Virus record (IMG/VR): IMGVR_UViG_3300042898_001439
Span: 14,726 to 78,725 of that record
Strand: one strand, 5' to 3'
Length of the DNA: 64,000 nucleotides
Origin: a virus
In this document: one piece after another, positions 13,563-50,682 of the stretch
How positions within the stretch are numbered: the first letter of the stretch is position 1
Layout: each line of letters begins with the position of its first letter
The notes under the pieces: model-generated
Databases searched by the model: none
What the model saw: only the letters and a program-made list of their open reading frames with translations
What the model was told of the DNA's origin: nothing
Made by a program: the position numbers and the translations under genes

Positions 13563-13606
13563 GTGCAAATAGCATTATAAGTTTCATAAAAGTTGTTGGT
13601 TTATCT

Positions 13607-13834: not shown

Positions 13835-16800
13835 TTATTTATTTCTAGCTTCAATGCTTATGAAGGTTTTTATACCTTCACTAGGATCTACAGTTGTTCC
13901 TTTTATACCAACAAGTTTTGCAGTGTGATTCAAAACCTTGGCATCACCCTTTTGTTGGAATTCAAATGGTCCCATATCTCTACCATAGAAAGCTCTATCA
14001 TCCTCACCAGCTAACTGCATTACGTCATTAATAATGCTTCCGTAAGCACCAAAGGTTGGAGCAATTACAATAGAACTAGCATCTAATAGATTAGCATAAT
14101 CAGTTAATCCAAAACTATACTGAGTTCCTTTATAGGCAACCGTAGGTAAAGGAATAAACTGTCTATTCTCAGCTTGAACAAGCATAGTTTGGTAAAGAGC
14201 ATGGTTCATTAACCAGCCACCAAGATCAAATTCATATTCTGATTCTGCTACACCGGGTAGTTGGAGCGGTCCACTTCTTTTTCTAAGCTTTTCATATTTG
14301 TCCTCATCATCAAGGTCAAATCCAAAGGCAAACGTAGAGATAAGAGTAAGAGCCATCAATTGACCAATTTCAGCAACAGTTTTAAGAGCTCCTCTTTTTT
14401 CTGATTCGGTAAAGTAAAAACCACCTTGACCAAGTCCACGCATTAGAGATACAAAGAAGTTTCCGAATTCTTTGTAGTAACCAGCGCTAACCTCAGCACC
14501 AGCTGCATTGAATCTTCTGTTACCAAATCTATGCATAAACATAGAAGTAAAATATCTTCTAAGGAATGATACAAATCTAAATGCTAGATATCTCTGTGCT
14601 TCTGGTTGATCAAACTGGGCATAAGTACCTTGAAGCTTATTCATAAGATCGTGAGTCTTATTTACAAACAGCTTAAAGTTTTTACCACCTTTATCCCAGC
14701 TTTTATCTACTCCTTCTTTAAGAGTTAATTGTCCATCAACAATGTCCCAAGCGTCTACATAGTCAATCATTCTTGTTTCACCGTTCTGGGTAAATTCAAT
14801 CTTTTGACCGTGCATCATAGAGAAGAAGAATTCCATTGAACCTTCAAGTTCCAAAACCTTTCTTGGAGAGAATAGTACTGAGCCTTCAGATAAATCTCTA
14901 AGCAAAGTTCTAGAACCAAGGTCTGCCATCTTCTGCTCAAATCTTCCTTGTACTGGATCAAACACTTCAACAAGTTGCACATTCAAACTCTTAGGGCCCT
15001 TTTTATAAATCTGAGAAGATATCTCACTAGTTACTTGCCAACCTTTAAGCTTTCCCTTAGTATAGTCTTTAGAACTAAAATTACTACCACCAATTGCTTC
15101 AATGTTATTTTGAATGATTGCACCAAAGCGGTTCTTTAAAGCTGAAGGAATGTTACCTGCAAAGAATCTAAATGAAGCCAGACCAAATAAAGTACTAGAT
15201 ACTTTTTGTATAGTAGTGCTTTCTGAACCAAGACCGGTAAACTTAATACCTTCAAATTCTCTTTCAATAAGATTATCAATAGCCTTAGCTCTTACAGATT
15301 CACCTTTCTTAGTAATTGGAGATATAATTCCCCTGTAGATATAAGCAGATCTGTTTACTTTACCCATGTCTTTAACTCCATTTCTAGGATCTTTAAGAAC
15401 CTTTTGAAGCGCTTTAACATGGGGGTTAATCTCAATCAATTTCTTTTGTCGCTCTACACTTGCCATGTACTTGACCATAGAACCAACAACATCAAGAGAT
15501 ACTTGGTCTATATCAAGACGGTATTTACCTGCAACAGGGATACCGCTGATTTCATTGTCAAACATGTCTGCAGATACAAGATCAAAGTTTTCCTGGGTAA
15601 AGTTGTATCCATCTTCAGCATCGTCAGCAGCTCCTACAAACTGGGATTTGAGAGCTTTAGCTATAGAGGTAATGGCGCCTACTTTTTCTTTACCCTTCTC
15701 TGCAAGATTTGTAGTTCTGATAAACTCAAGGTTATGCTTTCTAAATCTTGGGATCTCTAAATACAGCTTAGCAGACTTATTAGCACCCAACTGATTCTCT
15801 AAATGAACTTTACTAAGTGATTCTAAAGCTGCAAACTTTTCCGGACTGTTCTTTCTAAGAGCTTCGTAATCTTGATTAATATACTTATCATCAATAGCTC
15901 CCTGCTGAACAGTCTTAGGTAGCCAGTAACCTCTGTTATCTACAGTCTCACCAACTACTTTCTTAGTTCTATACTGATCTTTAACTCTTGCATAGAAGAA
16001 TTCTCTTTTGGGTATTCCCTGAACAACTTCTCCAGTGCTAAGCTCAGTAGTCTTAACAAATTCTTTTGCCGGAACGTTTCTATTCCAAGCAAAGAGTCTT
16101 TGATATTTAGTTACTTCTTCTCCTGTACTGTAATCAAAGCGCTTAACTTGAACATGATTAGCTTCATACCAAGCTTTAAACTCTGGTGAAGCTTTTAGCA
16201 ACGGATTAACAATAGTTGGTTGAAGGAGTAGATCAGCTGTTCTGTTGTTTACAGACTTAAACAGTACAGAGTTCATCTCAGGATTGTTGAATCTAACCTG
16301 CTGGATCTTTTCATTTGCCAGTTCTACATAGTAATCTGTAGCAACTTTTGATTGCAGTTTACTAAGTTCAGAGTAAAGAGCGGACAATCTTCCTTTGTCA
16401 CGCATTGTCATACGAGACATTTCCTTAGCTTGAAGAAGTACAGACATCTCGTCAATCTCTTCATCAGTAAGTTCTCTTTGTTCTTTCTGCTCAAGAAGTT
16501 CTTGAAGTCTATCAAACTCTGATACGGTAAGTCCGCTAACTTGAGCAAGCTTATCTCTAAGAAGAATGGCTTTTTCCTGAAGAGTTTTGATCTCCTCAAT
16601 TCTAGCATCAGACATATCAGTCCCTACAATCTGACCATCCTCATCTTTAAAACCAGAGACAAGATCTACAATATCATTATAGGTATCAGACACCTCTTTT
16701 GAGAGTTGACCTGACCCAGGATACTTGCTTAGAATCTGAGAAATCTCAGAGCTTGCTCTTTGCTTTCTTTCGTAATACTCAGAATCAACAGCATATCTAG

Positions 16801-19204
16801 TGTTGTCTTCAATCCACTCTTTTCTCTTTTGCTCAAGTTCCGGACTACCGGGTTGCAAACCATTAGCAATCAATCCATCAAGATAGTCATTCAATCTTCC
16901 CTCAAAGACATCAATCATAGGAATCTGCTCATAGAACTTAGACGACTCCTCTCTGTATTGTCTGTGGAGATTTGCTTTCTCTAAGTCATTACCAGTCTTC
17001 TTGGTTCCATCAGGATATCTCAGTGAGAAAAGATTTGAGTACTGTGACCAAAGTTCTTTAACTCTGTCTTGGTGATCTTGATCAACAGAAGTTTTAGATT
17101 GATCCAAAGCATCCATTTCATTCTGAACACTCTCTAGAATCTTCTCTCTTTCATATCTAGCTTCTGCACCTAGTTCACCAGCATCATCATAGATTTTATT
17201 CTTTTCGTAAAACTCATTGACATACTCTCTGTGCATGTAATTAGTTTCCCACTGCTGAAGTTCTTTCTTTTTATTACGAGCTTCTTTGTTTTTACCTTCT
17301 TTGATAAGTTGCTCATACTCAAAGTTTAAGCGAATTCTATCTGCCTCATAGTTCTTAAACTGGTTTAGAAGTTTAACAACTTGATACTCTTCAAGCTCTC
17401 CTTTGTCATTAACTCTTGTCTTATTGTCTATGAAAGTTAAAACCTTCATAAGCTCAGCAGGATTGCTAGCATCATAACCAGCTTTGTCTAACTTAGACAT
17501 AAGTTCGGTTGACATCTGATTTACCCTGCTTTGAACTTTTACTTGTACATCAATAAGATTATCCTTAAGATATTTAGCAAAGCCACCAACTATAATATCC
17601 GGGTTATTAATGTAGCTTTCAAGGAATGCAGAAAACGCATTAGTATCTCCAAGACTTCCTCTTAGAGTAGCTTTAATCTTAGCTCTATCAAAACTAAACT
17701 TTTCCAAATCGGCTCTAAGCTTTTTAATCTTTCCAGCTGGAGCATTTGCTTTAATAGCTTTTTCTAGTTCAGCTTTTATGTTAGACTGAATGTTCTCTGA
17801 TACAGTCTGAAGAGTATCCCAAAGCAAATCAGCACTTGCCTCAGTGTAAACGTTTACAATGTTTTTTTGAGATCTCTCAACAATACCCTTAATATTATCA
17901 ATTAGATTAGCAATCTGTCCTGTGCTACTTAAACCACCTTCACTTAATACATCATTAGCGTGTTCAAGAAGCTTGTTCCAGTTACTGGTAAGATTATCTA
18001 AATAGTAAATCTTTTGAAAAGCTTCTTGAGTATCAAGTTGAGTAAGTTCGTTAATCTCAGTATCAATGAGTTTCATCATCGCTTCAATCTTTCTCAAAGC
18101 AATAACAAACTGAGTAGCCCTTCTAGAAATAATCTCTGCATCAGCTGCAGCATCATCAATTACAGACTCTAAGCCAGATACTGTCTTCAGGGTATCTCTA
18201 ACACCCTGAAGTAATCCTCTACCACTATCTTCGGCAAGTAGTTCTTTGATGAACTTCTGCTTTCCGCTTCTCTGTATAGATCTAATCTGAGACGTTACTA
18301 GCTGAAAAGTATCCTCAACCGTTTGTACAAGTGCATCATTCTGCACTTTCTCAAGCTCTGCTTTAAGCTTTAGATCATTAGCACGGAGATATGCAACATA
18401 CTCTTCCTCACTAATAGAATCAGTATTGATCTCAAAGTTTTCACTCTTTAGCATCTCTGCCAAATCAGCAATCTTAGTATCAAGTGTGAGTCTCTCAACT
18501 TTTACCTTTCTACCAAACATGTTTCTAAACAGTTGCTTGATAGCATAGAGAACTTTCTGAATAAATCCGTTAGCCTGGAAGTCTTGTGCAGATACGTTCT
18601 TTTGTACAGCACGTACAATTGCCTCCTCAAACTTTAGATCTTGCTCTTCTTCACCATAGAGCTCTTCAACAATAGCATTAATCTGTGTATCAGCAATAGC
18701 TTCAGCTGCCAACCGGTCAAACAATGCTCTGTTTTCATTCTTAATAGCTCTAACTAATGGGTGAATAAACTCGTGGATTGCATCATCTGCACCAAATGCT
18801 CCGTCAAGCAAGTATACTTTACCACCAACAAAGAATGCTTTTTCACCTGACCAAGGATTCTTACTGTTCTTAGTCAGCTCAATTGCATCATCACCGCTAA
18901 TAATCTGGTAATCAACTCCAAGCTTTTCTTGAAGGACATCCAAAATTCTAGCAGTAGTACCAGCAACAATAGCTTTACCACTAGTACCAATATTTAAATC
19001 AGGTATAGCTTGAACCGTTTCAAATTTTACAGTACCATCTGAAGACAAAAACTTTATAGTATCTCCTGGAACATATGCACGACCTAATTCTTCTGTAGTA
19101 AGCAGGTCTCCTTTTTTAGCATAAGCACGGTAAGCTTCAAACTCACCAAGCTTATCTACCATATTAACCCACTCTTTGGAACTCTTGTTTGGACAAGCAA
19201 TCAT
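13835..19204 (-). CDS. Giant virion cargo/ejection protein (1789 aa) with N-terminal zincin-like HExxH domain
   Basis: AIHEFIH...FEEAIV; long helical/coiled-coil body; hydrophobic C-terminal helices; directly follows the virion RNAP as in crAss-like phages. Confidence 0.75.
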   Translation of the reverse strand: MIACPNKSSKEWVNMVDKLGEFEAYRAYAKKGDLLTTEELGRAYVPGDTIKFLSSDGTVKFETVQAIPDLNIGTSGKAIVAGTTARILDVLQEKLGVDYQIISGDDAIELTKNSKNPWSGEKAFFVGGKVYLLDGAFGADDAIHEFIHPLVRAIKNENRALFDRLAAEAIADTQINAIVEELYGEEEQDLKFEEAIVRAVQKNVSAQDFQANGFIQKVLYAIKQLFRNMFGRKVKVERLTLDTKIADLAEMLKSENFEINTDSISEEEYVAYLRANDLKLKAELEKVQNDALVQTVEDTFQLVTSQIRSIQRSGKQKFIKELLAEDSGRGLLQGVRDTLKTVSGLESVIDDAAADAEIISRRATQFVIALRKIEAMMKLIDTEINELTQLDTQEAFQKIYYLDNLTSNWNKLLEHANDVLSEGGLSSTGQIANLIDNIKGIVERSQKNIVNVYTEASADLLWDTLQTVSENIQSNIKAELEKAIKANAPAGKIKKLRADLEKFSFDRAKIKATLRGSLGDTNAFSAFLESYINNPDIIVGGFAKYLKDNLIDVQVKVQSRVNQMSTELMSKLDKAGYDASNPAELMKVLTFIDNKTRVNDKGELEEYQVVKLLNQFKNYEADRIRLNFEYEQLIKEGKNKEARNKKKELQQWETNYMHREYVNEFYEKNKIYDDAGELGAEARYEREKILESVQNEMDALDQSKTSVDQDHQDRVKELWSQYSNLFSLRYPDGTKKTGNDLEKANLHRQYREESSKFYEQIPMIDVFEGRLNDYLDGLIANGLQPGSPELEQKRKEWIEDNTRYAVDSEYYERKQRASSEISQILSKYPGSGQLSKEVSDTYNDIVDLVSGFKDEDGQIVGTDMSDARIEEIKTLQEKAILLRDKLAQVSGLTVSEFDRLQELLEQKEQRELTDEEIDEMSVLLQAKEMSRMTMRDKGRLSALYSELSKLQSKVATDYYVELANEKIQQVRFNNPEMNSVLFKSVNNRTADLLLQPTIVNPLLKASPEFKAWYEANHVQVKRFDYSTGEEVTKYQRLFAWNRNVPAKEFVKTTELSTGEVVQGIPKREFFYARVKDQYRTKKVVGETVDNRGYWLPKTVQQGAIDDKYINQDYEALRKNSPEKFAALESLSKVHLENQLGANKSAKLYLEIPRFRKHNLEFIRTTNLAEKGKEKVGAITSIAKALKSQFVGAADDAEDGYNFTQENFDLVSADMFDNEISGIPVAGKYRLDIDQVSLDVVGSMVKYMASVERQKKLIEINPHVKALQKVLKDPRNGVKDMGKVNRSAYIYRGIISPITKKGESVRAKAIDNLIEREFEGIKFTGLGSESTTIQKVSSTLFGLASFRFFAGNIPSALKNRFGAIIQNNIEAIGGSNFSSKDYTKGKLKGWQVTSEISSQIYKKGPKSLNVQLVEVFDPVQGRFEQKMADLGSRTLLRDLSEGSVLFSPRKVLELEGSMEFFFSMMHGQKIEFTQNGETRMIDYVDAWDIVDGQLTLKEGVDKSWDKGGKNFKLFVNKTHDLMNKLQGTYAQFDQPEAQRYLAFRFVSFLRRYFTSMFMHRFGNRRFNAAGAEVSAGYYKEFGNFFVSLMRGLGQGGFYFTESEKRGALKTVAEIGQLMALTLISTFAFGFDLDDEDKYEKLRKRSGPLQLPGVAESEYEFDLGGWLMNHALYQTMLVQAENRQFIPLPTVAYKGTQYSFGLTDYANLLDASSIVIAPTFGAYGSIINDVMQLAGEDDRAFYGRDMGPFEFQQKGDAKVLNHTAKLVGIKGTTVDPSEGIKTFISIEARNK

Positions 19205-22200
19205 GATTTACAATTCTTAATTAGGTCAAGTACGTCTTGATCAGTTACATCTTGTGTTGTTTGAACAGCCTCTCTATATGTAGCACTAGGTGCATTGTTT
19301 GTTGGGAGTACACCAAAAGTATTAGTAAACTCCTCAATAAACACAGTGTAGTATTCGGGTTTACCCTCAAATACATCTGAGTATAAAGAAGAGTCCATAA
19401 CAGGTGTCAAACCCTCACTATTAAGATACTGCAATTTCTGGAAAGCTTCTCTAACACTTTCACGGAATTCCTCAAGGGATACCGCAGATGGTAATTTAAA
19501 TGAAGCAGCATTTTTAACGTTTCTACCAGCAGCTTCTAAAGTCTTAGCTAGAGGAATAGCATATGCAAACTTGGGATTCTTAACTGCAGTTTCTAATGGA
19601 TTCTTAGCAGTATAGTTAGTAGCGCTGAGAAGTATGTTTGTGCCTTCAATGTAGTTTTGTTGAATAGCACTGTACTCCGACAAATAGTTATTTACAGAAC
19701 TTCTATAGACATATTCTTGAGCACCACTTTCATCAAACTTTACAAACTTTGTGGTTAATCCTTTTAAGTACTCAGATATAGATTCACCTTTACTAGCAAC
19801 AAATTGCTGCATTAAAGATGAGTAATTATTATCTGGTGCAATCTTACCAAGATTGTATTCACCAGAGGTAAATCCATTCTGAAGGAATGCTATAGTTGTG
19901 AACTGAGAGAAGAAGTCAGATATTTTCTTATTTTCTTTAGCATCAGATACCTTTTGTATAGATGGATCAGCAAGAGCCACGAGATTATCATGATAAGAAT
20001 CCAGAACTTCGGCCTCAGTAATTCTAGTAGATAGCTTGAGTCTGTCAATACCATTTGTTCTATTAAACACCAAATCATCTAGTACTGGGTACTGACTGGT
20101 TAATTCAGGATGCTTTTCTACAATACTAGTAAAAGTGCTAGCATAGCTTCTTGCTTCATCTGAAGAAGAGAACATGTACCAAAGATTGTTTGAGTTTCTT
20201 AGTGCAGCATCTCTAAGCTTAGCCTCATACTGCTCTTGAGTCTCGGTCTCCAACTTTGTTGTAATAGATCTTAAGTACTCTCTTTCAAGAGTAAAGTTGT
20301 AATACTGATCAAAGCTATTCTTACCATTAATGGTTTTGAAGTTAAAAGCAGAAGGATTAACTCTTGCTCTATCAAACTTAGTAAGACTAGTATTTATATT
20401 CTGAAGATCTCTTCTAAGTTGTGCAGGGTCTACATAAAGAATACCATTCTTTATAGTAGCACCAGCCTCTAGAGATACTTTCTGAATTGGTAATCCCTTA
20501 TATTCTTTAGTAGAAAGGTCTGCTCCCAGTAGTGCTTCTTGGTAAACAGCGGTAAATATTTGAGACAAAGCATTTGAAATACCTGACTCTTTGTTTTCTG
20601 CAAAAGCAAATGTCTTAGTAATAAAATCTACTACTGCAGGGTTGTTTCTTATTGCAAAGAAATCCCAAGCTTCTTTTTGAGAATACGACGCTTTTGCAAA
20701 ACTCTTTAAGATCTTATTACCGTAGTATTTAGAAGCAGTTTCTTCCGGAACAATATTATATCTACCACCAGCAAGTGCTTTCTGAACATTACCCTCTCTA
20801 AGATTTAGAGCAAAAGAATTGTTAAATGTGCTTGTATCAAAGTTTGAAGAAAGCTTTAGACCTGTAATATCATCACTAACAGCCTCAAGTTGTAAGAAGT
20901 GAGCAAATGCTTCTAATTGTAATTGATCTGAAGCAGCACCAGTAGACAGTTCTGTAAGTTCACTTTCTGAAAATGATTTATTATTTCTTTCTTTTTTCAA
21001 AAAGTTAAGAGCGCTATTCAAATAATCAAGCTTTCCGGAGCTAGCTTTTGCAGCCGCAGTAGCCCTTCTTCTTGTTTTAGTAGTTGCTGCTGTAAGATTA
21101 AAGGGAGAAGTTTGTAGTTTAAACTCTTCTACATATGACTTTACAAGAGGATTAGAAACAAAGTTTATAGCTTGTCTTAAAGGAACTCCAGCTCCAAGCA
21201 TAAACAATAAAACCGGACCCGCAATATTATTACCCTGAACTTCAAAAATCCAAGCATCTTTTTCTACGTCTACCCAACCATTCATAAGCTGAGCAATGAT
21301 ATCACCAATACTTTCTTTTTGCATAGTTCTAAGTCTATCCATTACAATAGCACCATCTTCAGAATTATGCGGAAGTAAAATATTATTATCAAATTCAAAC
21401 TTTTTCGCACCTAGCGAATATTGTATTTTTAAAGAAAGTTTAAATCCTGTTCTATTCATTACAGTATTATTGGTATTATCTACTGCAGCAATACCTAATA
21501 CCATTTTGCCCACCCCGTTACTTTCGTGTTTATTAAGATTGTAACCAACCTCAATAATTTTAAGAGGAGAATTGCTCCAGTTAAACTTCTTGTTGTAACC
21601 CTTTGCAGCAAACTCATCAGCAATAGGTTTAACCATGTCTGTTGCGTTAGGTCTGATAAGGTTTACAAAGTTTTCTGGAGATTCAAGAATCTCAACTACA
21701 CTCTGAATAATATTATTCTCTACCCCCTCGATAGTTTCCTCTGACAGATCTAGTATTAGCTCTCCGTTCTTAACCTTGATATTAGGCATCATAACGGTAA
21801 GCTTGTCAATATCAAAGTCACCACCAGATTTAGTTGTAATCTCGTAGGGTAGTACAATACTGATACCACTCTCTTCGGGTAAGAACTCTGCAACCTGCAT
21901 AAACTCCATAGAATTGTGACCCTGTACTGGAATACGTACAGCAATCATCTGAAGCATCTCTTTATAAAGAACGTTGAATGAGGTCTTTTTAATCATCTCA
22001 TTCAATCTTTCAAGAGTACCGATCTCTTTACCGTCATTGTGGTTAAGCTTCAACAGCTCCTTAAATCTACCCTGCAAAGCAATCTTAACCTCCATAGGTT
22101 CTGTAATGTCACCAGCTTTACGGTAGAACTTAAGTTTAGACTCACCCTCAGTACCAATCTTTTCAAAACCAACACCAGATACTTGTACGAGTGATTCACC

Positions 22201-25200
22201 GTTTACCTTAGTGCGGATAACCTCGTTAGCCACAATAGAATAAAGAGCTTTTTCAATCTCGTTTGCAGCTAGAGAAAAGTCAAGAGCTGATTTTAAATTA
22301 CCGTTTCCAGCTTGCTCTACATAATCTACAACATGCTGAGGAAGCTGACGCTGCTCCAGCTTTTGCTTTAAATAAGTAAGAAGCTTGCTTGTATCTGTAA
22401 CAGTGTAGCTACCATTTTCTTTTGCAATACCAATCTCAGTGTAGAGTTTCTCAAGCTTAAGCGTAACCTGCTTTTCAACAAGTGCTTCATATTGATCTAC
22501 AAGTCTTTCTGCATTCTTAGATACCGGCTTACCACCATCATACATATACTGAAGAATAAGCTTTCTCAACTGAGTAGAGAATCTAACTTCTTCTTTAAAT
22601 GAATCAGAAATATTTACCTGATCTTTCAAGAACGGTAGGTGAACCTGATATGTATTGAGCGGACCCTCTACAAACTTGCCATCAGCATCTACAAACTTTG
22701 TTGCAGGCTTACCATCGGCAAGCTTACTACCAGACTTAAATGTCACATAGTGCACATTCTGTCTAACCATCTGATTATGCAATTGCTCAAGGTTAGTACC
22801 TTTTACAACGGAGGGAACCAGTGGGAATAGTGAGAACTTATGAAAAGCGTATACAGCAAGATTAGAAGTTTGGATAGGTCCAAAGTACTGATACTTTAAA
22901 GGAGGGAATGTTTTAAGAATCTTATTAGGATCTACAGCCTCACCGTTAGCAATCTTTTTATAAAGATCTTCTTGTTGTGGTGACCACTTACCAAGAAGTT
23001 GTCTTGAAGCTTTATAAAAATCAAAGCTAATGTAACCCTGACCATCAGCAGCGTTGGTTTCTTTATACCCGTCAAGATATTTAGTATCAAGACCTGCAGC
23101 TTCAAATGCTTTTGTATATTCAGCAAATAGCTTAGGATTTGATTCTTCCATATTCTGAATCAAATCTTCAAGTACGGCAACGTTTAACACACCATCAAAG
23201 GGGTTAATAGTAAAGCCTTCTTGTGCTGCTAGTCCTTTTGCATATTGGAATCCTGTTCTTGTTACATGATCAAATGCTTTCTTGTTCATTGTATGAACAT
23301 CACCGGTAGAAGCTACACCAGCATTACGCTTGTGGAAGTCATCTTTTGCATGATTGTACAGTGCAGCATCACCATAAAGAATAGGTAATACTTCAAGATT
23401 ATGAATAAGAGCATTAGCAGTATAAGCAGCTACTGCTACATCATTACTAACACCGGCAAGATTTCTAAGACTCTCTGATTTAAATGGAAGACGAGCAAAG
23501 ATTTCTTTATTATTATTTATCTGACCAACAACATACTTTGCCAAAGCTTGATTAATCTTTTCAGATAGCTCCGTATTAGCGTTAATCTGAGAAAGAATAT
23601 CTCTATTATAGTCAAGAGCCATAAGCTCGTCCTTAGAGTCTTTAAGAATATCACCAAACAAAGTAAGATCTTTTGCTTTATCTGTGTAACCTGGAATATC
23701 TACATCCTGATTAATAACTGTAAGAGCTCGTGTTACTTCATTAGCAACATGCTGTTTCATTAAGTCAACAGTAGCCTTGATACCACGATCATCAGCAAAT
23801 CTATTTATATCTACGTAAAGATGTGGGTTGTTTGTATTGTACTTAGTACTCAATCTAGCACCTTTAACTGCATAAGCACTGGATTTAGAAGCATGACGCA
23901 TAAGCTCCATATCACCGGAGCTAAGCATTGCATTCATATCATAGATAAACTTGCTGTAAGGATCAAGAGCTGTTGTAGATATACCTGTAGATCTATCACT
24001 ATCAATAAGCTTTACACCATTGAAGTTAGAAAGCTCAAGCTTTCCTCCAGGTATTCTCTCACCAAACTTAACTCTTACTGTTTCACCAGTAGCGGGATTT
24101 CTGTACGACGTAAACTCCTTGGTGATATCAAGATTAAATACAGATCCTAAGATGTGGTTACCCTTAAGCATAGGATTCTTTGTAATATCCCAGCTTGCCA
24201 TATGTGGCATCTTAACGATATCTTGGTAAGTCAACTCAGGATTGTTAATCATAGAAACAATCTGAGTAATAGTATTATTCAGAGAGTATTCATTCTGAGG
24301 ATTGTTCTCAGCGTTAAGAACTTGACCCATCAAAGCTTTATCAGAAGAAAGTCTTCTGTAATCTAATAGGTCATTAATAAGCTTAGCATTACTCTCAAGC
24401 TCAAGATCTTTTCTAGTCTGCTTTAGAGTTGATACAGAATTAGCAATACCAGTAAACTCCGGTGACTTAGAATCTTTAGCGTAGATCTTATTGAGTGCAG
24501 GACGCAAGTAAGTATTTACTCTATTAGTAAACTTCTTTAGATCTTCTCTAACAATAGCAGTGTCATCAAAGTAAATACCAATTGCCTGAAGGTAATCGTA
24601 TACGTTTGCATGTGTTACAGCTTTAAAGTCTTGATTGAGTTTTGTTACATTCAAGACAGTACCTGCACTAGTCTTAGTTACATAAGGATTTACTTCTCCA
24701 CTAATCGTTTGACCAAGAGTAAACAGTCTATGCCACTCTCTTTCTACCTTTTTATTATCACCAATAGCACGACCAAAAGTCTCAAGAGTTTTACCCTCAG
24801 CTTTAGTAACAGTCATTTCCTTAATAGGAATCTCGTACTTATTAAATGTCTGGTAGAACTTTGTCCACATAGATAGACCAGCATCGCTAACAATAACTAA
24901 AGGATCTCCAAGCTTATCCGCAACTTGGTTTAGCATAGAGTTTTTAGAAGACTTGAGAATCTCATACATCTTCTGCTCATTGTAACCCTTACCTGATACA
25001 GCTTTGGCTACTTTCTTAAATACTTCTTCTCCGCTATAGAGTTTAGGTAGACCAAAGTAATTCGTCGTATCAGCTTTAATACTGCGAAGAGTGTACATAA
25101 TTACCGGATCCGCATAATCAACCAGTGTACCTTCAGTTCCAGATCTATCTTGAAGCTGAGTGTAGTCCATTGTGTCATTCTCATCAATATCAAGAATATC

Positions 25201-26523
25201 AGCAACAGACTTTGCAGTAATCTTAAAATCAAGATACTTACTACGCTTCTTATGGTATGCAATCGTACCGGTAGCACCACGCTTGGATGCAGAAACTACA
25301 TCACCATAGTTATTAATAGCAAAGTCAAGAGCATTTAGTTTTTCAATTAGTTGCTCTCTTTCAATTGGATCAATTGTAGCTTCTACTCCTGCAGCTACTG
25401 CACTGCGTACAGCTTTTAAACCTGACAGAGCTACATCATACACAGACTTAAGAGTTTCTTCTGTAGAGAAGAGTACGCTTACAGGTAGATTGTTTTTATC
25501 AAGAGCTTCAGAGATGAAGTAATCAATTGCCTCAACCACAGCCAAAGACTGAGTAGAAGTCAAAGATGTTTGCTTGTCTTCAATTCCGGTTAAACCTTTA
25601 TTAAGAAGACCAAACTGTACATTATCAAGAGACGGTTTAAGATTTAAGGTATGACCCTTATAAAGGTTATCATACATCTCTTGTATACTAACAAGAGCAG
25701 TCTGCTTGCTGAGAGCTTCTCTTGCAGATACTCCGCCAAAGAGTTGCTTCAAGAATCTAAGAAGCTTTCTAAAAATTGTATTTCTTTCTGGACGCTTACC
25801 AAGTACAAGCTTACCATCAGACAAAAGATATTTTCTAAAATCTTCTGCAAGTGTTTCTTCTACCTGAAAATCGGTAAGCTTAGAACCAAGAACCTTTCTT
25901 GCTTCATTGTATAGAGCTTGCTTCTGACCTTTTGTAAGATATAACTGGCTGAATCCGTGAAAAGCTTCGTGGTAGATATCAGTGTAGTTAGCACCATGAA
26001 ATAGTGTGATACCATACTGAGTCCACTGTGCAAACGCATTACTGTTTACCACATTGAATGCTTCTTGCAAACCAATGTTCTTACTCAGAGGGCTTTTATC
26101 CCACCATTCTTTAGCAGCTTTTACCTGATCTACAGTAGCTTGGTTATCATTACCCTTAAGCTTAAAGAGATACCAATCGTCATAAGTAATACCGGAACGC
26201 TCTGCATCTTGACGTTGAACATTTCTAGCATCTTCACGCTCTTCATACTTTCTAAAGACACGATCTACAAATGCCGGATCGGGTGTAATGTCAATGTACT
26301 TCTGACCATTATCCTCAAATGCAATCTTTGCAGCTTTACCACCAAACAAGTCATTGATTTGGTTTACAGCTTTAGCTATAGCATTACTTTTTTGTCCTGC
26401 CTGATTAATACCAATATAAGTAATAGAATTAGTAGACTCTAGATATTCTCTAGCGCTTTCCTTGATTCTTTTTACAAATTCAATCCGGATACTCTCCTCA
26501 ATATCAAGCGAACATAGTCTCAT
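19201..26523 (-). CDS. Virion-packaged single-subunit double-psi-barrel RNA polymerase (phi14:2 gp66-like) with N-terminal zincin domain
   Basis: RIPVQG...GGDFDIDKL (DFDID at 21805-21819), ADGQGY, KSGSK, STQLRKL; HEAFH...EETLAEDF. Confidence 0.92.
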   Translation of the reverse strand: MRLCSLDIEESIRIEFVKRIKESAREYLESTNSITYIGINQAGQKSNAIAKAVNQINDLFGGKAAKIAFEDNGQKYIDITPDPAFVDRVFRKYEEREDARNVQRQDAERSGITYDDWYLFKLKGNDNQATVDQVKAAKEWWDKSPLSKNIGLQEAFNVVNSNAFAQWTQYGITLFHGANYTDIYHEAFHGFSQLYLTKGQKQALYNEARKVLGSKLTDFQVEETLAEDFRKYLLSDGKLVLGKRPERNTIFRKLLRFLKQLFGGVSAREALSKQTALVSIQEMYDNLYKGHTLNLKPSLDNVQFGLLNKGLTGIEDKQTSLTSTQSLAVVEAIDYFISEALDKNNLPVSVLFSTEETLKSVYDVALSGLKAVRSAVAAGVEATIDPIEREQLIEKLNALDFAINNYGDVVSASKRGATGTIAYHKKRSKYLDFKITAKSVADILDIDENDTMDYTQLQDRSGTEGTLVDYADPVIMYTLRSIKADTTNYFGLPKLYSGEEVFKKVAKAVSGKGYNEQKMYEILKSSKNSMLNQVADKLGDPLVIVSDAGLSMWTKFYQTFNKYEIPIKEMTVTKAEGKTLETFGRAIGDNKKVEREWHRLFTLGQTISGEVNPYVTKTSAGTVLNVTKLNQDFKAVTHANVYDYLQAIGIYFDDTAIVREDLKKFTNRVNTYLRPALNKIYAKDSKSPEFTGIANSVSTLKQTRKDLELESNAKLINDLLDYRRLSSDKALMGQVLNAENNPQNEYSLNNTITQIVSMINNPELTYQDIVKMPHMASWDITKNPMLKGNHILGSVFNLDITKEFTSYRNPATGETVRVKFGERIPGGKLELSNFNGVKLIDSDRSTGISTTALDPYSKFIYDMNAMLSSGDMELMRHASKSSAYAVKGARLSTKYNTNNPHLYVDINRFADDRGIKATVDLMKQHVANEVTRALTVINQDVDIPGYTDKAKDLTLFGDILKDSKDELMALDYNRDILSQINANTELSEKINQALAKYVVGQINNNKEIFARLPFKSESLRNLAGVSNDVAVAAYTANALIHNLEVLPILYGDAALYNHAKDDFHKRNAGVASTGDVHTMNKKAFDHVTRTGFQYAKGLAAQEGFTINPFDGVLNVAVLEDLIQNMEESNPKLFAEYTKAFEAAGLDTKYLDGYKETNAADGQGYISFDFYKASRQLLGKWSPQQEDLYKKIANGEAVDPNKILKTFPPLKYQYFGPIQTSNLAVYAFHKFSLFPLVPSVVKGTNLEQLHNQMVRQNVHYVTFKSGSKLADGKPATKFVDADGKFVEGPLNTYQVHLPFLKDQVNISDSFKEEVRFSTQLRKLILQYMYDGGKPVSKNAERLVDQYEALVEKQVTLKLEKLYTEIGIAKENGSYTVTDTSKLLTYLKQKLEQRQLPQHVVDYVEQAGNGNLKSALDFSLAANEIEKALYSIVANEVIRTKVNGESLVQVSGVGFEKIGTEGESKLKFYRKAGDITEPMEVKIALQGRFKELLKLNHNDGKEIGTLERLNEMIKKTSFNVLYKEMLQMIAVRIPVQGHNSMEFMQVAEFLPEESGISIVLPYEITTKSGGDFDIDKLTVMMPNIKVKNGELILDLSEETIEGVENNIIQSVVEILESPENFVNLIRPNATDMVKPIADEFAAKGYNKKFNWSNSPLKIIEVGYNLNKHESNGVGKMVLGIAAVDNTNNTVMNRTGFKLSLKIQYSLGAKKFEFDNNILLPHNSEDGAIVMDRLRTMQKESIGDIIAQLMNGWVDVEKDAWIFEVQGNNIAGPVLLFMLGAGVPLRQAINFVSNPLVKSYVEEFKLQTSPFNLTAATTKTRRRATAAAKASSGKLDYLNSALNFLKKERNNKSFSESELTELSTGAASDQLQLEAFAHFLQLEAVSDDITGLKLSSNFDTSTFNNSFALNLREGNVQKALAGGRYNIVPEETASKYYGNKILKSFAKASYSQKEAWDFFAIRNNPAVVDFITKTFAFAENKESGISNALSQIFTAVYQEALLGADLSTKEYKGLPIQKVSLEAGATIKNGILYVDPAQLRRDLQNINTSLTKFDRARVNPSAFNFKTINGKNSFDQYYNFTLEREYLRSITTKLETETQEQYEAKLRDAALRNSNNLWYMFSSSDEARSYASTFTSIVEKHPELTSQYPVLDDLVFNRTNGIDRLKLSTRITEAEVLDSYHDNLVALADPSIQKVSDAKENKKISDFFSQFTTIAFLQNGFTSGEYNLGKIAPDNNYSSLMQQFVASKGESISEYLKGLTTKFVKFDESGAQEYVYRSSVNNYLSEYSAIQQNYIEGTNILLSATNYTAKNPLETAVKNPKFAYAIPLAKTLEAAGRNVKNAASFKLPSAVSLEEFRESVREAFQKLQYLNSEGLTPVMDSSLYSDVFEGKPEYYTVFIEEFTNTFGVLPTNNAPSATYREAVQTTQDVTDQDVLDLIKNCKS

Positions 26524-28331
26524 TACTTACAAGAGTTTTGTTTTCCTTTATTAATGTTTTCGGTAATCTTGGAATCAACAGACTCCTGTATATTAAAGGT
26601 AGCACCTAATCCTTGATTAACAATGCTTTCTTTAAGTTGATTAGCAACAGCTTCACCTATAGAGACTAAGTCTAATTGAAAAGACGGAGCTTTAACAACA
26701 TCTGATTTTTGTTTTATTTTAACTTTTGAAACTGGTTCAGTTTTTACCTCTACTGCTTTTTGAGTTTCTAACTGTAAAGCAGGATCAAATGAAAGATTAA
26801 AGTAAGGTTTAGTAGTCTCCTCCAATCTTGCTGTAGTATTAAAATACTTAAGCATGTAATCAGTAGCAGATAGCGTATTATACTTCAAAGAATTTTGATC
26901 GTAATAAGGAATATCTACAGAGCCATTTGAACTAATGGGTGCATTGGCTCTATAAGTTGATGTTACAACACCTGATGCAGATTCAGTAACAGACTTCAAA
27001 ATTTGAGTGAGTGCTTCTTCTGTAACAGGTTGTCCTTTATAGAGAATAGCCGTCTCTCTTACTCTAATGTCTTTTGTAAATAACAAAGACTCAAAAATTT
27101 CTTTTTTTGTTTGATAGGGAACAGAAGTATCAAAAAGATATTTTGCTAAGATCTCAGCAGGTATTACATCTGTAATTCCAGGTCTATCAATTCTAATTAA
27201 TTTATTAGAAAAAGAAACATTAAAATATGCTCTTCCTGTCGCAGGATCTACTTCATAAATAAACTCTTCTCCAAAAGACTTAAAATCAATCTCAGAAAGT
27301 TTTATTGGATTACCGGAATCAAAGGTTACAGAAGCTCCAGCACTAGTATTAATATCTAGATAAATCTTTTGATCAGGATTAACCTGCAAAGCTTCTCTAA
27401 TATTATATAAAGTACGATATTCTTTTTGTCTTGCCTCTTGAGCTATGTCAATATCTACTCCAGCCGCAGATGCAACTTCTGATATAGGTGCTTCTCCTTT
27501 TACGGTAAATACACCATTAACCAAGGAAGGCTTATTTATAACATATTGTGGAGTTGTACCCTCTTCAGCAATATTACCGGCAGCATCTACTTTAACAGGA
27601 TTACCCTCAGCATTAACAATAATAGCTTTTACTCCGGCATATTCAGGATTAGCTTCAAGAAAATCTTTTTCTCTTGTAGGTATTTCACCCTCAAAAGATC
27701 TTGAATCAATTATCTGAATACGTAAACTACTATAAACAGAATCATTTGTTTTTTTACCCTGATGATACTTAGCAATAAACTGTTGAGAAGCCTGTATGAT
27801 TGGATCAATATTTCCTTCCGGTATAACATTAAATGCTGTTAAAGCACTTTTACCAACAGCTTTAAAAGGAACAGAAATAGCAGACTTATTTGTAGGCACT
27901 GCTGTACCTAATACAACTTCTGAAGATGCTCCTAATGTTTCGTCTTCTTGTAGATCTAAGCTAGCTTCATTATTTGCAAGAACCTCTTCTTTCTTTTGTT
28001 CTGCTGCTTCATTACCAATACCCAAATAAGTACCTACAGCATCAAAATTTTCAAACGTATCTCTAAGCATATCAAACTCTGCAAAAGCAGGTCTAAGATG
28101 CTTTACTGCTTCTTTGTTTACAGAATAGATTGCTACTAAATTATTCGGAATAAACGATGCAAATGTCTGAGCCTTTGCTCGGTCACCGGTCTTTTCAAAG
28201 ATTTGTTTGTACGTATCCTTGATGTAATTCTCTAAAGAAAAGGATTGACCTGAACGTGCAGACGCTAGTACGTCTCCCACCATCTTGGCAAGAAACTTTT
28301 CTTTCAGCTTATCAGAAACAGCACAAATCAT
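26523..28331 (-). CDS. Virion cargo/ejection-cluster protein (602 aa)
   Basis: Translationally coupled between the 1215-aa protein and the RNAP; no recognisable motif. Confidence 0.7.
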   Translation of the reverse strand: MICAVSDKLKEKFLAKMVGDVLASARSGQSFSLENYIKDTYKQIFEKTGDRAKAQTFASFIPNNLVAIYSVNKEAVKHLRPAFAEFDMLRDTFENFDAVGTYLGIGNEAAEQKKEEVLANNEASLDLQEDETLGASSEVVLGTAVPTNKSAISVPFKAVGKSALTAFNVIPEGNIDPIIQASQQFIAKYHQGKKTNDSVYSSLRIQIIDSRSFEGEIPTREKDFLEANPEYAGVKAIIVNAEGNPVKVDAAGNIAEEGTTPQYVINKPSLVNGVFTVKGEAPISEVASAAGVDIDIAQEARQKEYRTLYNIREALQVNPDQKIYLDINTSAGASVTFDSGNPIKLSEIDFKSFGEEFIYEVDPATGRAYFNVSFSNKLIRIDRPGITDVIPAEILAKYLFDTSVPYQTKKEIFESLLFTKDIRVRETAILYKGQPVTEEALTQILKSVTESASGVVTSTYRANAPISSNGSVDIPYYDQNSLKYNTLSATDYMLKYFNTTARLEETTKPYFNLSFDPALQLETQKAVEVKTEPVSKVKIKQKSDVVKAPSFQLDLVSIGEAVANQLKESIVNQGLGATFNIQESVDSKITENINKGKQNSCK

Positions 28332-28332
28332 T

Positions 28333-31300
28333 TTAACACTCGTTTATATTATCAAAGAAGTCTTCATCAAGATCTTCTTTAGGTTTAGAAGCAGCATCAT
28401 CAATAATTCTATTCTGCTTATTCATCATATCCTCACTAGTAGGAATAGATTCTTCGGCAAGAGTCTTCTCCTCTTCTGTAACAGCAGGAATAACTTCTCC
28501 GGCATCTGACCCAAGTTCAGCTTTTCTTTCAGCAATTCTAGTCATAATAACGTTTGCGGTTGCATCATCAAGATCTCCATCAAGGGATACCTCTGATTCA
28601 ATTCTTTTAAGATCGGCAATAGATGTAGCTGACTCTACTCTAGCAGAATATTTATTTGTAGTTGGTGTCTCAGCAAAAGCTTCTTCTGCAGTTGCCGGAA
28701 CAATTCCTGTTTCTTCTACTTGAGGATTAGCAGCAAAATATTCTCTAATTCTAGCTTGTGGAGTTGGGAATGTAGCGTACTGAACCACACTTCTAATAAG
28801 GTTCTCATCATTGGCTCTACGCTTAGCATTCTCACGCTCAAACATATTATCAATAATGTCCTTAAGTTCTTGCGGTAGATCAGAATACTGGTATTTCTGA
28901 GTTGGCCCTGCAGGTTCTTCAGTAGTAACTCTTACGGGCTCTGCAAATTCAGTTGCAACAGTAGGTGCTTCTTCAGTCGGAGTAACTGGTGTTTCTAAAA
29001 CACCCTCTTCAGTCTGTACTTCTTCTTGTGGTTTAGCTCCAAACTCAGGTGCAAACAGACCAAGAAGATTTCTTACAGATGCAGCCTCTTCAGAGTTAAT
29101 GTCTACTTCTTTTCTACCTCTAACAGTATAAAGTTTAGTAGGCATCTTGCCCTCATCAAAGTATGCTTTTAATTCATCATAACCAATAAAGTATCCACTC
29201 TTGTAGATTTGATTAATGATCTCATTCTTTTGAGCATTCTTTTTAAAGAGATCTAAAGACTTGCCAAGATATACTCTCTTATTTACAATAACATCTTCAA
29301 TGGCAGCAGCATTTCTTCTTGCATATTCAGTTAGTCTTTCTGGACTGTTCAATGCATTAATAGCATCAATCAAACCAAACTGATCTCTACCCAGAGCAAT
29401 TGAATCTACAATAGACGTAATATCACTATCAATGTTTTGTGCATTTACTCTAGCACCTTTAGCTGTCAGACCTGCATAAGCAGCATAAGCTTCTCTAAGA
29501 CCTTCTATTGCTTTTGCTCTTTTCTCTTGAGCTGCTTCAGATATATCAGATGCATTTTTGCCAGTAATAAGTTTTTCATATCTCTGACGGGCAATCCTGT
29601 ATTTATCAAGAGCCTTTCTTTTAGCTTTCTTTTCTGCAAGTAGTTGCTTTTGTTCAGGAGTAGTTGCTTCAGCAAGAACTTCCTTACTTAAAAGATCTAG
29701 TTCATTAGTTAATGCGGGAAGACTAGTAACCACATCAACATCAGAGGATGTAGTATTACCAGAAGTATTACGTTTAGAAATATCAGTCTTTAATGATTCA
29801 AATCTTTCTTTAGTCTTTTCTTGAGTTTCCTGTAAGAATATCAAATCTCTTTTAGCTTGCTCATATGAAAAGTGATTAAGTCTTACTCTATTGTAAGCAT
29901 CACTACCAGCAGCATATTGAGAAGCATCAAAAGGATTACCGTATTGCTTTTCTACTTCTTTAAATTTTTTCTGAAGATTGTCAGCATATACTACGGTCTC
30001 AGTAATTCTTTGTCTAGCTTCAGCAGCATCATCTAAACCAGTTGCCTCCATAACACCTTGATCATCAAGCTGTTGTAAAGAAGCAAGCTTCTGTTTAAAG
30101 TTATCCATTTGGCCTGTCTGAAGAACAGTCATCAAGTGACCAAAACGAAGTTCTTCAAGAACGTCTTTTGCTTTCTTCTCATCACCTTGTTGCTTAGCCT
30201 GCTGCCACTCAGCAAGAGCTTTACTCTGATCAATGTAGTTCTTGATTCTAGGATTGAAAAGAGAATAAACATCTTTAGATCCGTTATTAAGAATATCAAC
30301 AAGCTCCTGAGTTCTTTCAGCTTGTTGTTGATTAAGTGTTCTGATTTCTTCTCTACCGGTAGAAGTTGCAGACTTCATAAGTCTAGATAACTTATTACCA
30401 CCAACTCCAGTTATTCCACCAATAAACGCACCTGACATAAAGGTTTCCAAACCTTGTGCTGAAAACTGATCAGCAAGTGCTTCACTACTATATCTTCTAA
30501 GGGCAGGATCTGCTGCAAGATTTAGTACTTCACCAACACCATCAAATGTTCCTCTCATATCTTGAAAAGGAATATTCAACGGATCTGATAGTATGCTACT
30601 ATAGTAATCTTTATAAGACTGTGATACAATCTCCTGGAAGTTTTCTTGAAGACCTTCTGATACTGCAGGTAAAAATACGTTTCTACCAAATCTAGAAATA
30701 GATCCAGCAGTAAATGCATTTCTTAATCCATTCTTAAAGCCTTTACCAACTGTCTCATATACACCATTTGCAGTCTGACGAATGCCATACTTAGAAAGAT
30801 CAGATGTCATATCACCAGCCTTACCAAATACTCTTGAAGCAGTCTTACCCATTCCAAGAAGTGGCTTCATTACAATAGCATCGGTAAGATAAATAACTGG
30901 AAGGTTAGCCATTACAGCTCTGTCACCAGCTTCTTTAGAAGCTTTAGAAATATTCTCAAGCTCTTCAGTTGACGGCATTACACCAAACTGATCATAATAA
31001 TTATTAAGAGCTTCTCTATATAGTTCATTCTGAACAAAGCCACCTTCTAATTGAGCTTCAGTAGCCGCCGCTTTTACAAGCTGTACTTCTTTAAATAGGG
31101 CCCCGGCACCACGAACAGCAGAGGGTAAATCTTCTCCAATAGCAGCAGCTTTAAAAGCATCACTAACATACTCACTCATATTAGGCATTACTACTTTACC
31201 AATACCACCAGCTCCAGATTTAATCCAGTTTGGTGTGCTAGCTGAAATTGCATTTAATGCTGAAGCAGCTTTAGAAGGAGTAGTAATATCATCTAATGCG

Positions 31301-31980
31301 CTAACAACTCTTCCTGCTTTGATAGCATCATCAACTTTTGATATACCTCTAACACCTTGGAATATTTTTGAACCTAGCACACCAACACCGGCTTCAGGTC
31401 CAAGTAGCGCAGATGCAATAACACCCTCACCAAGACCTTCTACAACCATACCAGCCATAAAACCAAGATTAATAGCATTGTTTGCAAGAAATCCCTGTAC
31501 TCCACCCTCTGTAGAACCATAAAGTCTATTTATCTCTTCAAATCTAGCAGCAGCTGCAGGATCTGATTCAAACATAGTGTCCCAGTTTCCAGTAATAAGA
31601 TCATAAGTACCTTCTGCCATATCAGCAGCAGTGGTTGCTGTATTAAGCAACATGCCCTGAAGACCTCTACCAATCTCTCCCCAAGCACTTGAGTGAGCAT
31701 TATAAAGAGATTCATTATCAGCATACGGAGTAAATCCTAGCTCATCAAAGTTTGATCTACGAGCATAACGATAGTAGTTTGTCTCATGCAAACCAAAAGG
31801 TTCCGGAGCTTTTAACTCTACTAAAGGTTTAACATCTGCTTGAATTGAAGGTGTCCAATTAGGATTTGTAGAAGAATTTTCTTTAATAAGTCTTTGTAAT
31901 ACAGGATCACCATATCCTTGAAGCTTACGAGGATCTGGCAAATTATCACCGCTTATACTTTGTAGTGAATTTAAATCCAT
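28333..31980 (-). CDS. Virion ejection protein (1215 aa) with Gly/Ala-rich membrane-inserting segments
   Basis: LGFMAGMVVEGLGEGVIASALLG, SEGLQENFQE, FMSGAFIGGITGVGG; coiled coils; acidic P/T/E linker. Confidence 0.72.
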   Translation of the reverse strand: MDLNSLQSISGDNLPDPRKLQGYGDPVLQRLIKENSSTNPNWTPSIQADVKPLVELKAPEPFGLHETNYYRYARRSNFDELGFTPYADNESLYNAHSSAWGEIGRGLQGMLLNTATTAADMAEGTYDLITGNWDTMFESDPAAAARFEEINRLYGSTEGGVQGFLANNAINLGFMAGMVVEGLGEGVIASALLGPEAGVGVLGSKIFQGVRGISKVDDAIKAGRVVSALDDITTPSKAASALNAISASTPNWIKSGAGGIGKVVMPNMSEYVSDAFKAAAIGEDLPSAVRGAGALFKEVQLVKAAATEAQLEGGFVQNELYREALNNYYDQFGVMPSTEELENISKASKEAGDRAVMANLPVIYLTDAIVMKPLLGMGKTASRVFGKAGDMTSDLSKYGIRQTANGVYETVGKGFKNGLRNAFTAGSISRFGRNVFLPAVSEGLQENFQEIVSQSYKDYYSSILSDPLNIPFQDMRGTFDGVGEVLNLAADPALRRYSSEALADQFSAQGLETFMSGAFIGGITGVGGNKLSRLMKSATSTGREEIRTLNQQQAERTQELVDILNNGSKDVYSLFNPRIKNYIDQSKALAEWQQAKQQGDEKKAKDVLEELRFGHLMTVLQTGQMDNFKQKLASLQQLDDQGVMEATGLDDAAEARQRITETVVYADNLQKKFKEVEKQYGNPFDASQYAAGSDAYNRVRLNHFSYEQAKRDLIFLQETQEKTKERFESLKTDISKRNTSGNTTSSDVDVVTSLPALTNELDLLSKEVLAEATTPEQKQLLAEKKAKRKALDKYRIARQRYEKLITGKNASDISEAAQEKRAKAIEGLREAYAAYAGLTAKGARVNAQNIDSDITSIVDSIALGRDQFGLIDAINALNSPERLTEYARRNAAAIEDVIVNKRVYLGKSLDLFKKNAQKNEIINQIYKSGYFIGYDELKAYFDEGKMPTKLYTVRGRKEVDINSEEAASVRNLLGLFAPEFGAKPQEEVQTEEGVLETPVTPTEEAPTVATEFAEPVRVTTEEPAGPTQKYQYSDLPQELKDIIDNMFERENAKRRANDENLIRSVVQYATFPTPQARIREYFAANPQVEETGIVPATAEEAFAETPTTNKYSARVESATSIADLKRIESEVSLDGDLDDATANVIMTRIAERKAELGSDAGEVIPAVTEEEKTLAEESIPTSEDMMNKQNRIIDDAASKPKEDLDEDFFDNINEC

Positions 31981-34773: not shown

Positions 34774-34785
34774 GTATCTGTAGAT

Positions 34786-34805
34786 CTACATTAAAAGATA
34801 CGAAA
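34786..34805 (-). promoter_or_regulatory. Putative phage late promoter motif heading the ejection/RNAP operon
   Basis: TTTCGTATCTTTTAATGTAG. Confidence 0.55.
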
Positions 34806-34842
34806 AAATCTTGTAAGTTTTTAAACCTGAAAGGTTTATTAC

Positions 34843-46611: not shown

Positions 46612-46628
46612 TTTTTATTTCTTTAGTA

Positions 46629-47492
46629 CTATACAGTCGGATAAGACTTAAACATATCTACGTACTTATGGTATTGTGCTTTACGGTTAACCTCCCAAAG
46701 CTTTTTCATCTCTGCAAAATCGGGGGTATTAACAATAGACAAAGCATTGTTTCTAGAACCTCTAAGACGTTGTTCTACAAGTGTAAGCTTCTGAACTACA
46801 TCTTCACCGTTAATGTACATGTTCTCAAGAATGCGCTGCTTAATTGCATATTCATAGTATTCATTGATCATAGGATGATCCATAACCTGAAGCTCACCGT
46901 TCTCATCTTCAAGAGCTCCTTGGTAGTTTATATAAAGCTTACCCGTCTGAAAGCTGGTATAAATAAACCCGCCACGGATGTCTGCTTGATATTGTGCACT
47001 CCAACGTGTATTAGGACAATCTCCACTTACTGAACTAGAAGGTTTAATTCTTAGTGTCTGTAAACATTCATAAGTAACGGTCTTTGTTTTAAACTTTTGA
47101 ATGAGCTGGTAGTAGTTACCACAATCAGATTGACAAACAGAGGTATTTACCGGACAATCATTAGCATCAAGCTCAACTAAATTTGCATCAAGAATAACAT
47201 CTTCAATATGAGTACCGGATAATACAGGCTCTAACCAAGTAGCTTTACTTGCAAGAAGAGCAAAGTTTAAAGTATAAAAGTCTGACGGTAGTTTTGCTTT
47301 ACCATGCTCAACATCAATAACAACTTCTTTCTGCTGATGAATTCTAAGACCAAGATCATAGTTTACTCTCAAAGCAACTTTAATAAGCTGCTGAGGCTCA
47401 ATCATACCTTCAAGAGCATATGAGCTAAAGTCAACTGTTACATCCTCAAGCAGTTGATCAAATGAACGGTATTTAACTGTGTACTGTGCCAT
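46629..47492 (-). CDS. Tail ring/tubular protein
   Basis: KAKLPSDF, IYTSFQTGKLYINY...DENG...DHP; syntenic position before the muzzle. Confidence 0.72.
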   Translation of the reverse strand: MAQYTVKYRSFDQLLEDVTVDFSSYALEGMIEPQQLIKVALRVNYDLGLRIHQQKEVVIDVEHGKAKLPSDFYTLNFALLASKATWLEPVLSGTHIEDVILDANLVELDANDCPVNTSVCQSDCGNYYQLIQKFKTKTVTYECLQTLRIKPSSSVSGDCPNTRWSAQYQADIRGGFIYTSFQTGKLYINYQGALEDENGELQVMDHPMINEYYEYAIKQRILENMYINGEDVVQKLTLVEQRLRGSRNNALSIVNTPDFAEMKKLWEVNRKAQYHKYVDMFKSYPTV

Positions 47493-50662: not shown

Positions 50663-50682
50663 ACTAGTAAATATTAATTAGG

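Follow-up and report, generated by a model that had tools for sequence, protein, structure and literature searches.

Facing terminal cysteines in the split RNA polymerase cargo block of crAss-like phages: a candidate end-to-end protein linkage

In the cyanopodophage A4 (Anabaena phage A-4L), the ejection proteins gp27 and gp26 are joined by a Cys1715-Cys5 disulfide in the pre-ejectosome determined by cryo-electron microscopy (PNAS 2025, PMC12002296), with a C-terminal helix docked in a cleft of the partner (PMC12002296). Recounted here, gp27 (1717 amino acids, aa) contains a sole cysteine at residue 1715, the third from its C-terminal end, and gp26 (1114 aa) a sole cysteine at residue 5. The present analysis concerns a 64,000-nucleotide (nt) stretch, hereafter the window, comprising positions 14,726 to 78,725 of the IMG/VR virus record IMGVR_UViG_3300042898_001439 (78.7 kb, about 66% complete). 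The window is part of a divergent crAss-like phage, and four adjacent genes in it, here called the chain, encode large cargo proteins, including the virion RNA polymerase (RNAP), whose few cysteines face one another across the gene junctions. Our reading, with a confidence of roughly 0.65, is that neighbour-to-neighbour disulfides replace peptide bonds and join the cargo into one linear thread.

Crassviruses are the most abundant viruses of the human gut, and their RNA polymerases comprise 2000-4900 residues. The RNAP-block proteins of phi14:2 and crAss001 were shown in virions by mass spectrometry; crAss001 virions carry all three, with an illustrative estimate of approximately six copies each (PMC10172136), and in some phages these proteins are fused into one polyprotein. 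The passage of megadalton amounts of protein through the narrow crassvirus tail is a stated open question (PMC10172136, PMC13434306), and a 2026 paper on N4 calls the crassvirus ejection proteins unresolved (PMC13434306). The RNAP of N4 and that of the crAss phages are enzymes of different kinds (PMC13434306). The N4 ejection proteins gp50 (vRNAP), gp51 and gp52 (L095) contain 0 cysteines in 4294 aa, T7 gp15 and gp16 (L096) contain 0 in 2065 aa, and T7 gp14 contains one, at residue 2.

Terminal cysteines or an inter-protein link are mentioned neither in the paper on the phi14:2 RNAP (Drobysheva et al., bioRxiv 10.1101/2020.03.07.982082) nor in the crAss001 atlas (Bayfield et al. 2023, PMC10172136), and full-text literature searches found no description of a cysteine chain for Crassvirales. 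A preliminary description of the window had stated that nothing of the kind was known, which has to be amended for A4, where one such link was published in 2025 (PMC12002296). What is new here is the multi-link, order-wide form of that single link.

Cysteines of the four chain proteins

The chain genes are listed in chain order, with the coordinates of each cysteine codon in brackets.

28333..31980, minus strand: first chain member, 1215 aa, placed as phi14:2 gp67 and crAss001 gp47 are; sole cysteine C1215, the last residue (28336-28338); N-terminal cysteine absent.
26523..28331, minus strand: second chain member, 602 aa; only C3 (28323-28325) and C601 (26529-26531).
19201..26523, minus strand: virion RNA polymerase, 2440 aa; only C4 (26512-26514) and C2438 (19210-19212).
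13835..19204, minus strand: last chain member, 1789 aa; sole cysteine C4 (19193-19195); C-terminal cysteine absent.

A scripted recount gave 6 cysteines in 6046 aa, all within 4 residues of an end that faces a neighbour. The same recount found zero cysteines in the flanking proteins of 929 and 639 aa (upstream) and of 130 and 644 aa (downstream). The other open reading frames (ORFs) of the window contain 0.93% cysteine, from which 56 would be expected in the chain; the probability of 6 or fewer was 2e-17, and that of one cysteine falling in each of the six 4-residue facing windows was 6e-17. On the exact recount and these values, with a chance of about 1e-16 for the whole pattern, the pattern in the window is real and far beyond chance. 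Successive junctions, in chain order, read TAA-A-ATG (1-nt gap), TAATG (1-nt overlap) and ATGA (4-nt overlap). Both the cysteine count, with no additional internal residue, and the three junctions were as given in the preliminary description.

The 2440-aa protein carries the catalytic DFDID motif at residues 1569-1573 (21805-21819) and a HExxH motif at residue 185; it matched phi14:2 gp66 (tblastn, 8e-26), and matches occurred in 107 crAss-like records. The 1789-aa protein, with a HExxH motif at residue 144, matched phi14:2 gp65 (blastp, 2.5e-9) and crAss001 gp49 (8e-10). No family from PHROGs or Pfam was assigned to any of the four chain proteins, and the 602-aa protein, used as a query singly or as an alignment, retrieved no related loci among viral contigs.

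Conservation, splits and fusions across Crassvirales

The cultured phages with the same block gave the following positions.

phi14:2: gp67, C1797 of 1797; RNAP gp66, C3 and C2179; gp65, C3.
crAss001: gp47, C2339 of 2341; RNAP gp50, C5 and C2404 (plus C1334); gp49, C5.

DAC15, cr118_1, cr1_1 and crAss002 also fit the terminal-cysteine rule, with a few more internal cysteines, the crAss002 RNAP on condition that its start is Met33 (MSC). The annotated start of crAss002 gp33 (L010:11241-23978) is probably 32 codons early. From Met33 the protein begins MSCTPSNP, with cysteine at residue 3 as usual. The 170-nt gap that precedes this gene contains a terminator-like hairpin. Internal chain cysteines were roughly tenfold more frequent in the gut crAss phages (cr118_1, crAss002, DAC15, cr1_1 and crAss001; about 17 in 31,000 aa) than in the IMG/VR set described below (24 in 479,000 aa), which might reflect relaxed selection without oxygen.

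Eighty IMG/VR loci were fetched by RNAP-core alignment and are 27-43% identical in the RNAP core. Their chain proteins, amounting to 479,054 aa, contain 265 cysteines that lie no more than 10 residues from an end; a further 24 (0.005%) are internal, and the flanking ORFs contain 1.02% cysteine. At junctions between chain members, cysteine was present on both sides in 140 of 140, the C-side residue lying 19 residues from the end in L088. No first protein had an N-terminal cysteine and no last protein a C-terminal one at the true outer ends. Two apparent exceptions (L019, L048) were contig edges, and two more (L057, L075) were junctions that had received one or two small ORFs, a GIY-YIG homing endonuclease among them, and where the flanking chain genes keep the cysteine pair. 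The terminal-cysteine pattern is conserved across the order Crassvirales. Free-standing GIY-YIG genes lie exactly in cysteine-flanked chain junctions in L057:12361-13050, L075:10024-10641 and L090:16099-16692; such genes may be one route by which a giant ORF is cut, or the junctions may be safe landing sites. Stop-codon recoding is suggested for L038, whose RNAP ORF attains 4924 aa only with TAG taken as a sense codon.

Closer relatives of the 602-aa protein gave the same picture. All 15 homologues intact at both ends (53-93% identical) have exactly two cysteines, at position 3 and at the penultimate residue. At six metagenome loci the neighbouring genes keep the same terminal cysteines; a single synonymous change, TGT to TGC, was seen. 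Nine giant proteins (3300-3600 aa) with a 602-like N-terminus came out of an exhaustive profile-free search, and each has exactly two cysteines, the first at residue 3 and the second no more than 8 residues from the C-terminal end.

Across the order, the residues around the terminal cysteines lack conservation: 109 distinct octamers were counted on the N-terminal side and 118 on the C-terminal side, and the cysteine codon was TGT in 247 cases and TGC in 40. When the last 220 aa of the first protein were aligned for 48 sequences, cysteine was the sole invariant column, the mean column identity being 14%. Only the N-side contexts differ (C-x-L-[ST] at the first junction, C-P-N-K at the last), a difference that may be simple homology of the N-terminal domains. 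A contrast between acidic C-termini at the first junction and basic C-termini of the RNAP was not supported, the mean net charges being -0.53 and -0.58. These data bear on the idea that the TGT/TGC codons serve translational coupling or reinitiation as part of a nucleotide signal, without any function in the protein. That the window junctions overlap or nearly abut, and that junction DNA is well conserved among close relatives, would fit such a signal. Both cysteine codons are used, however, and the pair survives homing-endonuclease gaps of up to approximately 650-1300 nt as well as the hairpin-bearing gap of crAss002, persists between genes on opposite strands, and is missing from ordinary coupled junctions nearby, such as that of the 929-aa and 1215-aa genes. 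Since only the cysteine is conserved and the sequence around it is not, a DNA-level signal is excluded, and this idea was given hardly any credence.

Gene splits and fusions provide a natural experiment. On the concatenated coordinate of the window, cuts fall at approximately 1216, 1817-2000, 4257 and 4870-5200, and across lineages there are five or more different cut positions. Additional pieces (165-782 aa) carry exactly two cysteines apiece, one N-terminal and one C-terminal, and lineages that are continuous at a given cut position have no cysteine there. The 602-aa protein of the window corresponds to the first ~500 residues of the fused RNAP ORFs of relatives (3100-3600 aa); those of 3100-3250 aa to which it was mapped have no internal cysteine. 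In L060, L068, L077, L080, L081 and L084, the first protein and the RNAP are fused (4187-4777 aa), and the N-terminal cysteine and the junction pair are both missing. A HExxH module at 25819-26035 on the minus strand of the window (RNAP residues 163-235) matched residues 2135-2206 of crAss001 gp47 (7.6e-7); as it follows the cut in the window and precedes it in crAss001, the same module is placed on different sides of the cut in these two phages. From this comparison across lineages, a cysteine pair is found wherever the backbone is interrupted and nowhere else.

Binding of the terminal cysteines to something other than a neighbour (portal, capsid, DNA or lipid), self-pairing, or cyclisation of each protein on itself would leave this distribution without a cause, as none of these predicts the facing pairs, the cysteine-free outer ends or the loss on fusion. 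In two-piece chains each protein has one cysteine (cr118_1, L077, L080, L081, L084); intramolecular pairing, and with it cyclisation, is therefore excluded. In favour of such a partner is the lone cysteine of T7 gp14 at position 2, which has nothing to pair with among the T7 ejection proteins. Overall, a partner other than the neighbour was judged very improbable.

The first chain protein is encoded on the opposite strand in crAss001 (gp47) and in its DAC15 counterpart. These genes and the hairpin-bearing gap of crAss002 show that gene order and translational coupling are not needed; the preliminary description had proposed a chain in gene order and had noted the coupling. Its other expectations fared better: terminal cysteines were kept in orthologues at every junction counted in the 80 loci, and, as it had predicted, cysteine pairs appeared where genes are split and vanished where they are fused, over several independent cuts. 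It had also proposed that the C-terminal cysteine of each protein pairs with the N-terminal cysteine of the next, by a disulfide or a shared metal. The pairing logic was strongly supported by the 140 junctions and the A4 signature; the chemistry and consequences of the pairing are graded separately below.

Nature and possible role of the link

Under the disulfide-thread reading, the 1215-aa, 602-aa, 2440-aa RNAP and 1789-aa proteins would be pieces of one functional unit, which other crAss-like phages encode as two to at least four genes, variously cut. At each cut, the C-terminal cysteine of the upstream piece would form a disulfide with a cysteine at position 3-6 of the downstream piece. The virion product would be an unbranched thread of about 6000 residues, linear because the cysteines sit at the very ends of the proteins. 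The purge of other cysteines would allow the right pairs to form without scrambling, and would leave no internal cross-link to obstruct tail passage. The termini would probably dock non-covalently during assembly in the reducing cytoplasm, and the bonds would close in the packed or released particle. Such a thread may hold the pieces in equal numbers and let them exit one after another, after which the reducing cytoplasm of the host may separate them.

These steps differ in strength. It is well supported, from the sequence pattern, that the C-terminal end of one piece meets the N-terminal end of the piece after it. A disulfide as the bond between them is plausible, because the signature is that of A4, crAss001 virions contain inter-subunit disulfides elsewhere (PMC10172136), and no other conserved ligand residue was found. 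Ordered ejection and release by reduction are steps that we infer. Predicted docking of the 1215-aa C-terminus on the 602-aa N-terminus (score 0.50; best of three controls, 0.00) lends weak support. In the docking runs, contact agreement was at least 47% and partner predicted local distance difference test (pLDDT) scores were at least 60. Of 80 solved complexes, 58 attained the docking mark, as did 2 of 110 mismatched pairs; at scores of 0.60 or below it was attained by only 7 of those 80 complexes and by both of the mismatches that passed; these calibration counts hold only roughly for author-built alignments.

Several points weigh against a disulfide-linked thread. In no crAss-like phage has a disulfide been seen between these proteins, and the crAss001 maps do not resolve the cargo (PMC10172136). 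No homology to A4 gp26/gp27 was detected (no blastp hit better than E = 0.17), so that the likeness is one of signature and not of demonstrable ancestry. For the 602-aa protein, an AlphaFold2 model from a 14-row alignment has a mean pLDDT of 45.9, too poor to place its ends, and gut phages tolerate some internal cysteines. No thiol oxidase or oxidoreductase was found among the scanned ORFs of the window, the source record being only ~66% complete. Fused forms have been proposed to be cleaved after assembly, so that an unbroken chain may be of use in packaging alone, with no bearing on ejection. Assembly takes place in a reducing cytoplasm and gut crassviruses live in anoxic surroundings, which makes the closure of the bonds and its timing questionable.

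These last conditions would favour a metal over a disulfide. A metal ion could be shared by the two facing thiols (for example Cu(I) in linear coordination, or Zn together with further ligands), or a thiol-based link of another type could join them, and the pairing logic fixes only which ends meet, not the type of bond. No conserved His, Asp or second Cys stands beside the terminal cysteine, however, the identical A4 signature was modelled as a disulfide (PMC12002296), and disulfides are present elsewhere in crAss001 virions (PMC10172136). We regard a different chemistry for the same pairs as unlikely.

The role of the bond is a separate matter. Disulfides might only staple a folded internal body, or tether proteins for co-packaging, with no influence on how they are threaded or in what order they leave. 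The A4 bond stabilises the gp27/gp26 ring within a folded pentameric pre-ejectosome (PMC12002296); from sequence, moreover, only the link itself can be inferred, and the proposed later cleavage of the fused forms points the same way. The cysteines lie strictly 0-9 residues from the ends, which gives a linear product, and internal cysteines are almost wholly purged, as they are in the unlinked ejected proteins of N4 and T7. Both observations suit movement through a narrow channel better than a static staple, though neither is decisive. A role confined to stapling or tethering was considered doubtful.

Two further candidates were rejected. Split inteins were set aside as no chain protein gave a Hint-domain match or any Pfam hit, and there is no room for intein halves because the cysteines lie 0-9 residues from the C-terminal end and at residue 3-6 of the N-terminal end. 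A bacterial lipoprotein was likewise rejected, since a cysteine at residue 3-6, right after the start methionine, leaves no signal peptide or lipobox.

More generally, but only tentatively, 'polyprotein by disulfide' may operate in crassviruses and, by convergence, in some podophages such as A4. An unbranched thread of up to several thousand residues would then pass N-to-C through the tail in a fixed order, and reduction in the host cytoplasm would trigger both the separation of the pieces and the release of a self-inhibited RNAP for early transcription. If this were true, facing terminal cysteines in otherwise cysteine-free internal proteins would form a code from which the ejected proteins and their order of exit could be read. 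The end-to-end joining rule is a concrete hypothesis for cargo passage, testable on the cultured phages phi14:2, crAss001 and DAC15. It would explain both the free splitting and fusing of the block in evolution and its near absence of cysteine, and with it ejected proteins, together with their order, could be identified purely from sequence.

Neighbouring genes and comparison with known systems

Upstream of the chain, the following genes were annotated.

47492-48163, minus strand: tail ring protein 2 (Pfam CrAss_Ring_2); contains cysteine.
46629-47492, minus strand: tail ring protein 1 (Pfam CrAss_Ring_1); contains cysteine.
41908-46611, minus strand: crAss muzzle protein (Pfam crAss_MUZ); contains cysteine.
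31984..36762, minus strand: two cysteine-free proteins of 929 and 639 aa, in the position of the crAss001 cargo proteins gp45/gp46 by synteny only.

The muzzle and ring matches (41908..48163) were to PF25731 (1.2e-30), PF24228 (1.5e-11) and PF25702 (1.2e-19). Along the minus strand, the order is tail ring 2, tail ring 1, muzzle, two DUF5872 proteins, the 639-aa protein, the 929-aa protein and the four chain genes. The chain has the layout of an RNAP block: a gp65/gp49-like gene comes after that of the RNAP, and the block lies downstream of the ring, muzzle and cargo genes. The 929-aa and 639-aa proteins had no sequence match to crAss001 gp45/gp46 and are outside the cysteine chain.

Downstream, the chain is adjoined by the cysteine-free 644-aa protein (11634-13568, minus strand), which matched Cohesin (7e-9) and Por_Secre_tail (2e-6); a phage protein thus carries the C-terminal sorting and export signal of the Bacteroidota type IX secretion system. 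Cysteine-rich ORFs without a Pfam match were found at 50141-52719 on the minus strand (173 aa with 8 cysteines, 269 aa with 9 and 407 aa with 21) and at 55428-55832 on the plus strand (134 aa with 10), a cluster in sharp contrast with the cysteine-free cargo block.

Among described systems, the blocks of phi14:2 (gp67-gp66-gp65) and crAss001 (gp47-gp50-gp49) are the nearest: they are homologous, stand in the same neighbourhood and have the same terminal-cysteine pattern. Unlike them, the window has one extra cut, between the 602-aa protein and the RNAP, which gives four pieces. The ejection proteins of N4 and T7 are, like those of the crAss chain, large, internal, nearly cysteine-free and bound to pass a narrow tail. 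They are not homologous to the crAss proteins and have no facing terminal cysteine pairs, and N4 makes the equivalent unit as one 3500-aa chain. Their lack of cysteine suggests a general avoidance of cysteine in tail-passing proteins, which may hold for podophage ejection proteins at large, with the crAss terminal pairs as an addition.

The proposed join also resembles viral polyproteins and split inteins, in which one functional unit is obtained from several gene products or the reverse; unlike in these, it would be a reversible side-chain bond and not a peptide bond. A4 shares with the crAss chain adjacent giant ejection proteins, with the upstream cysteine at the C-terminal end and the downstream one near residue 3-6. 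In A4, there is one link between two proteins, reported as a structural detail rather than as a rule. The crAss chain, in contrast, is known here from sequence alone and has from 1 to at least 3 links in series through the virion RNAP, order-wide, gained and lost with gene splits and fusions.

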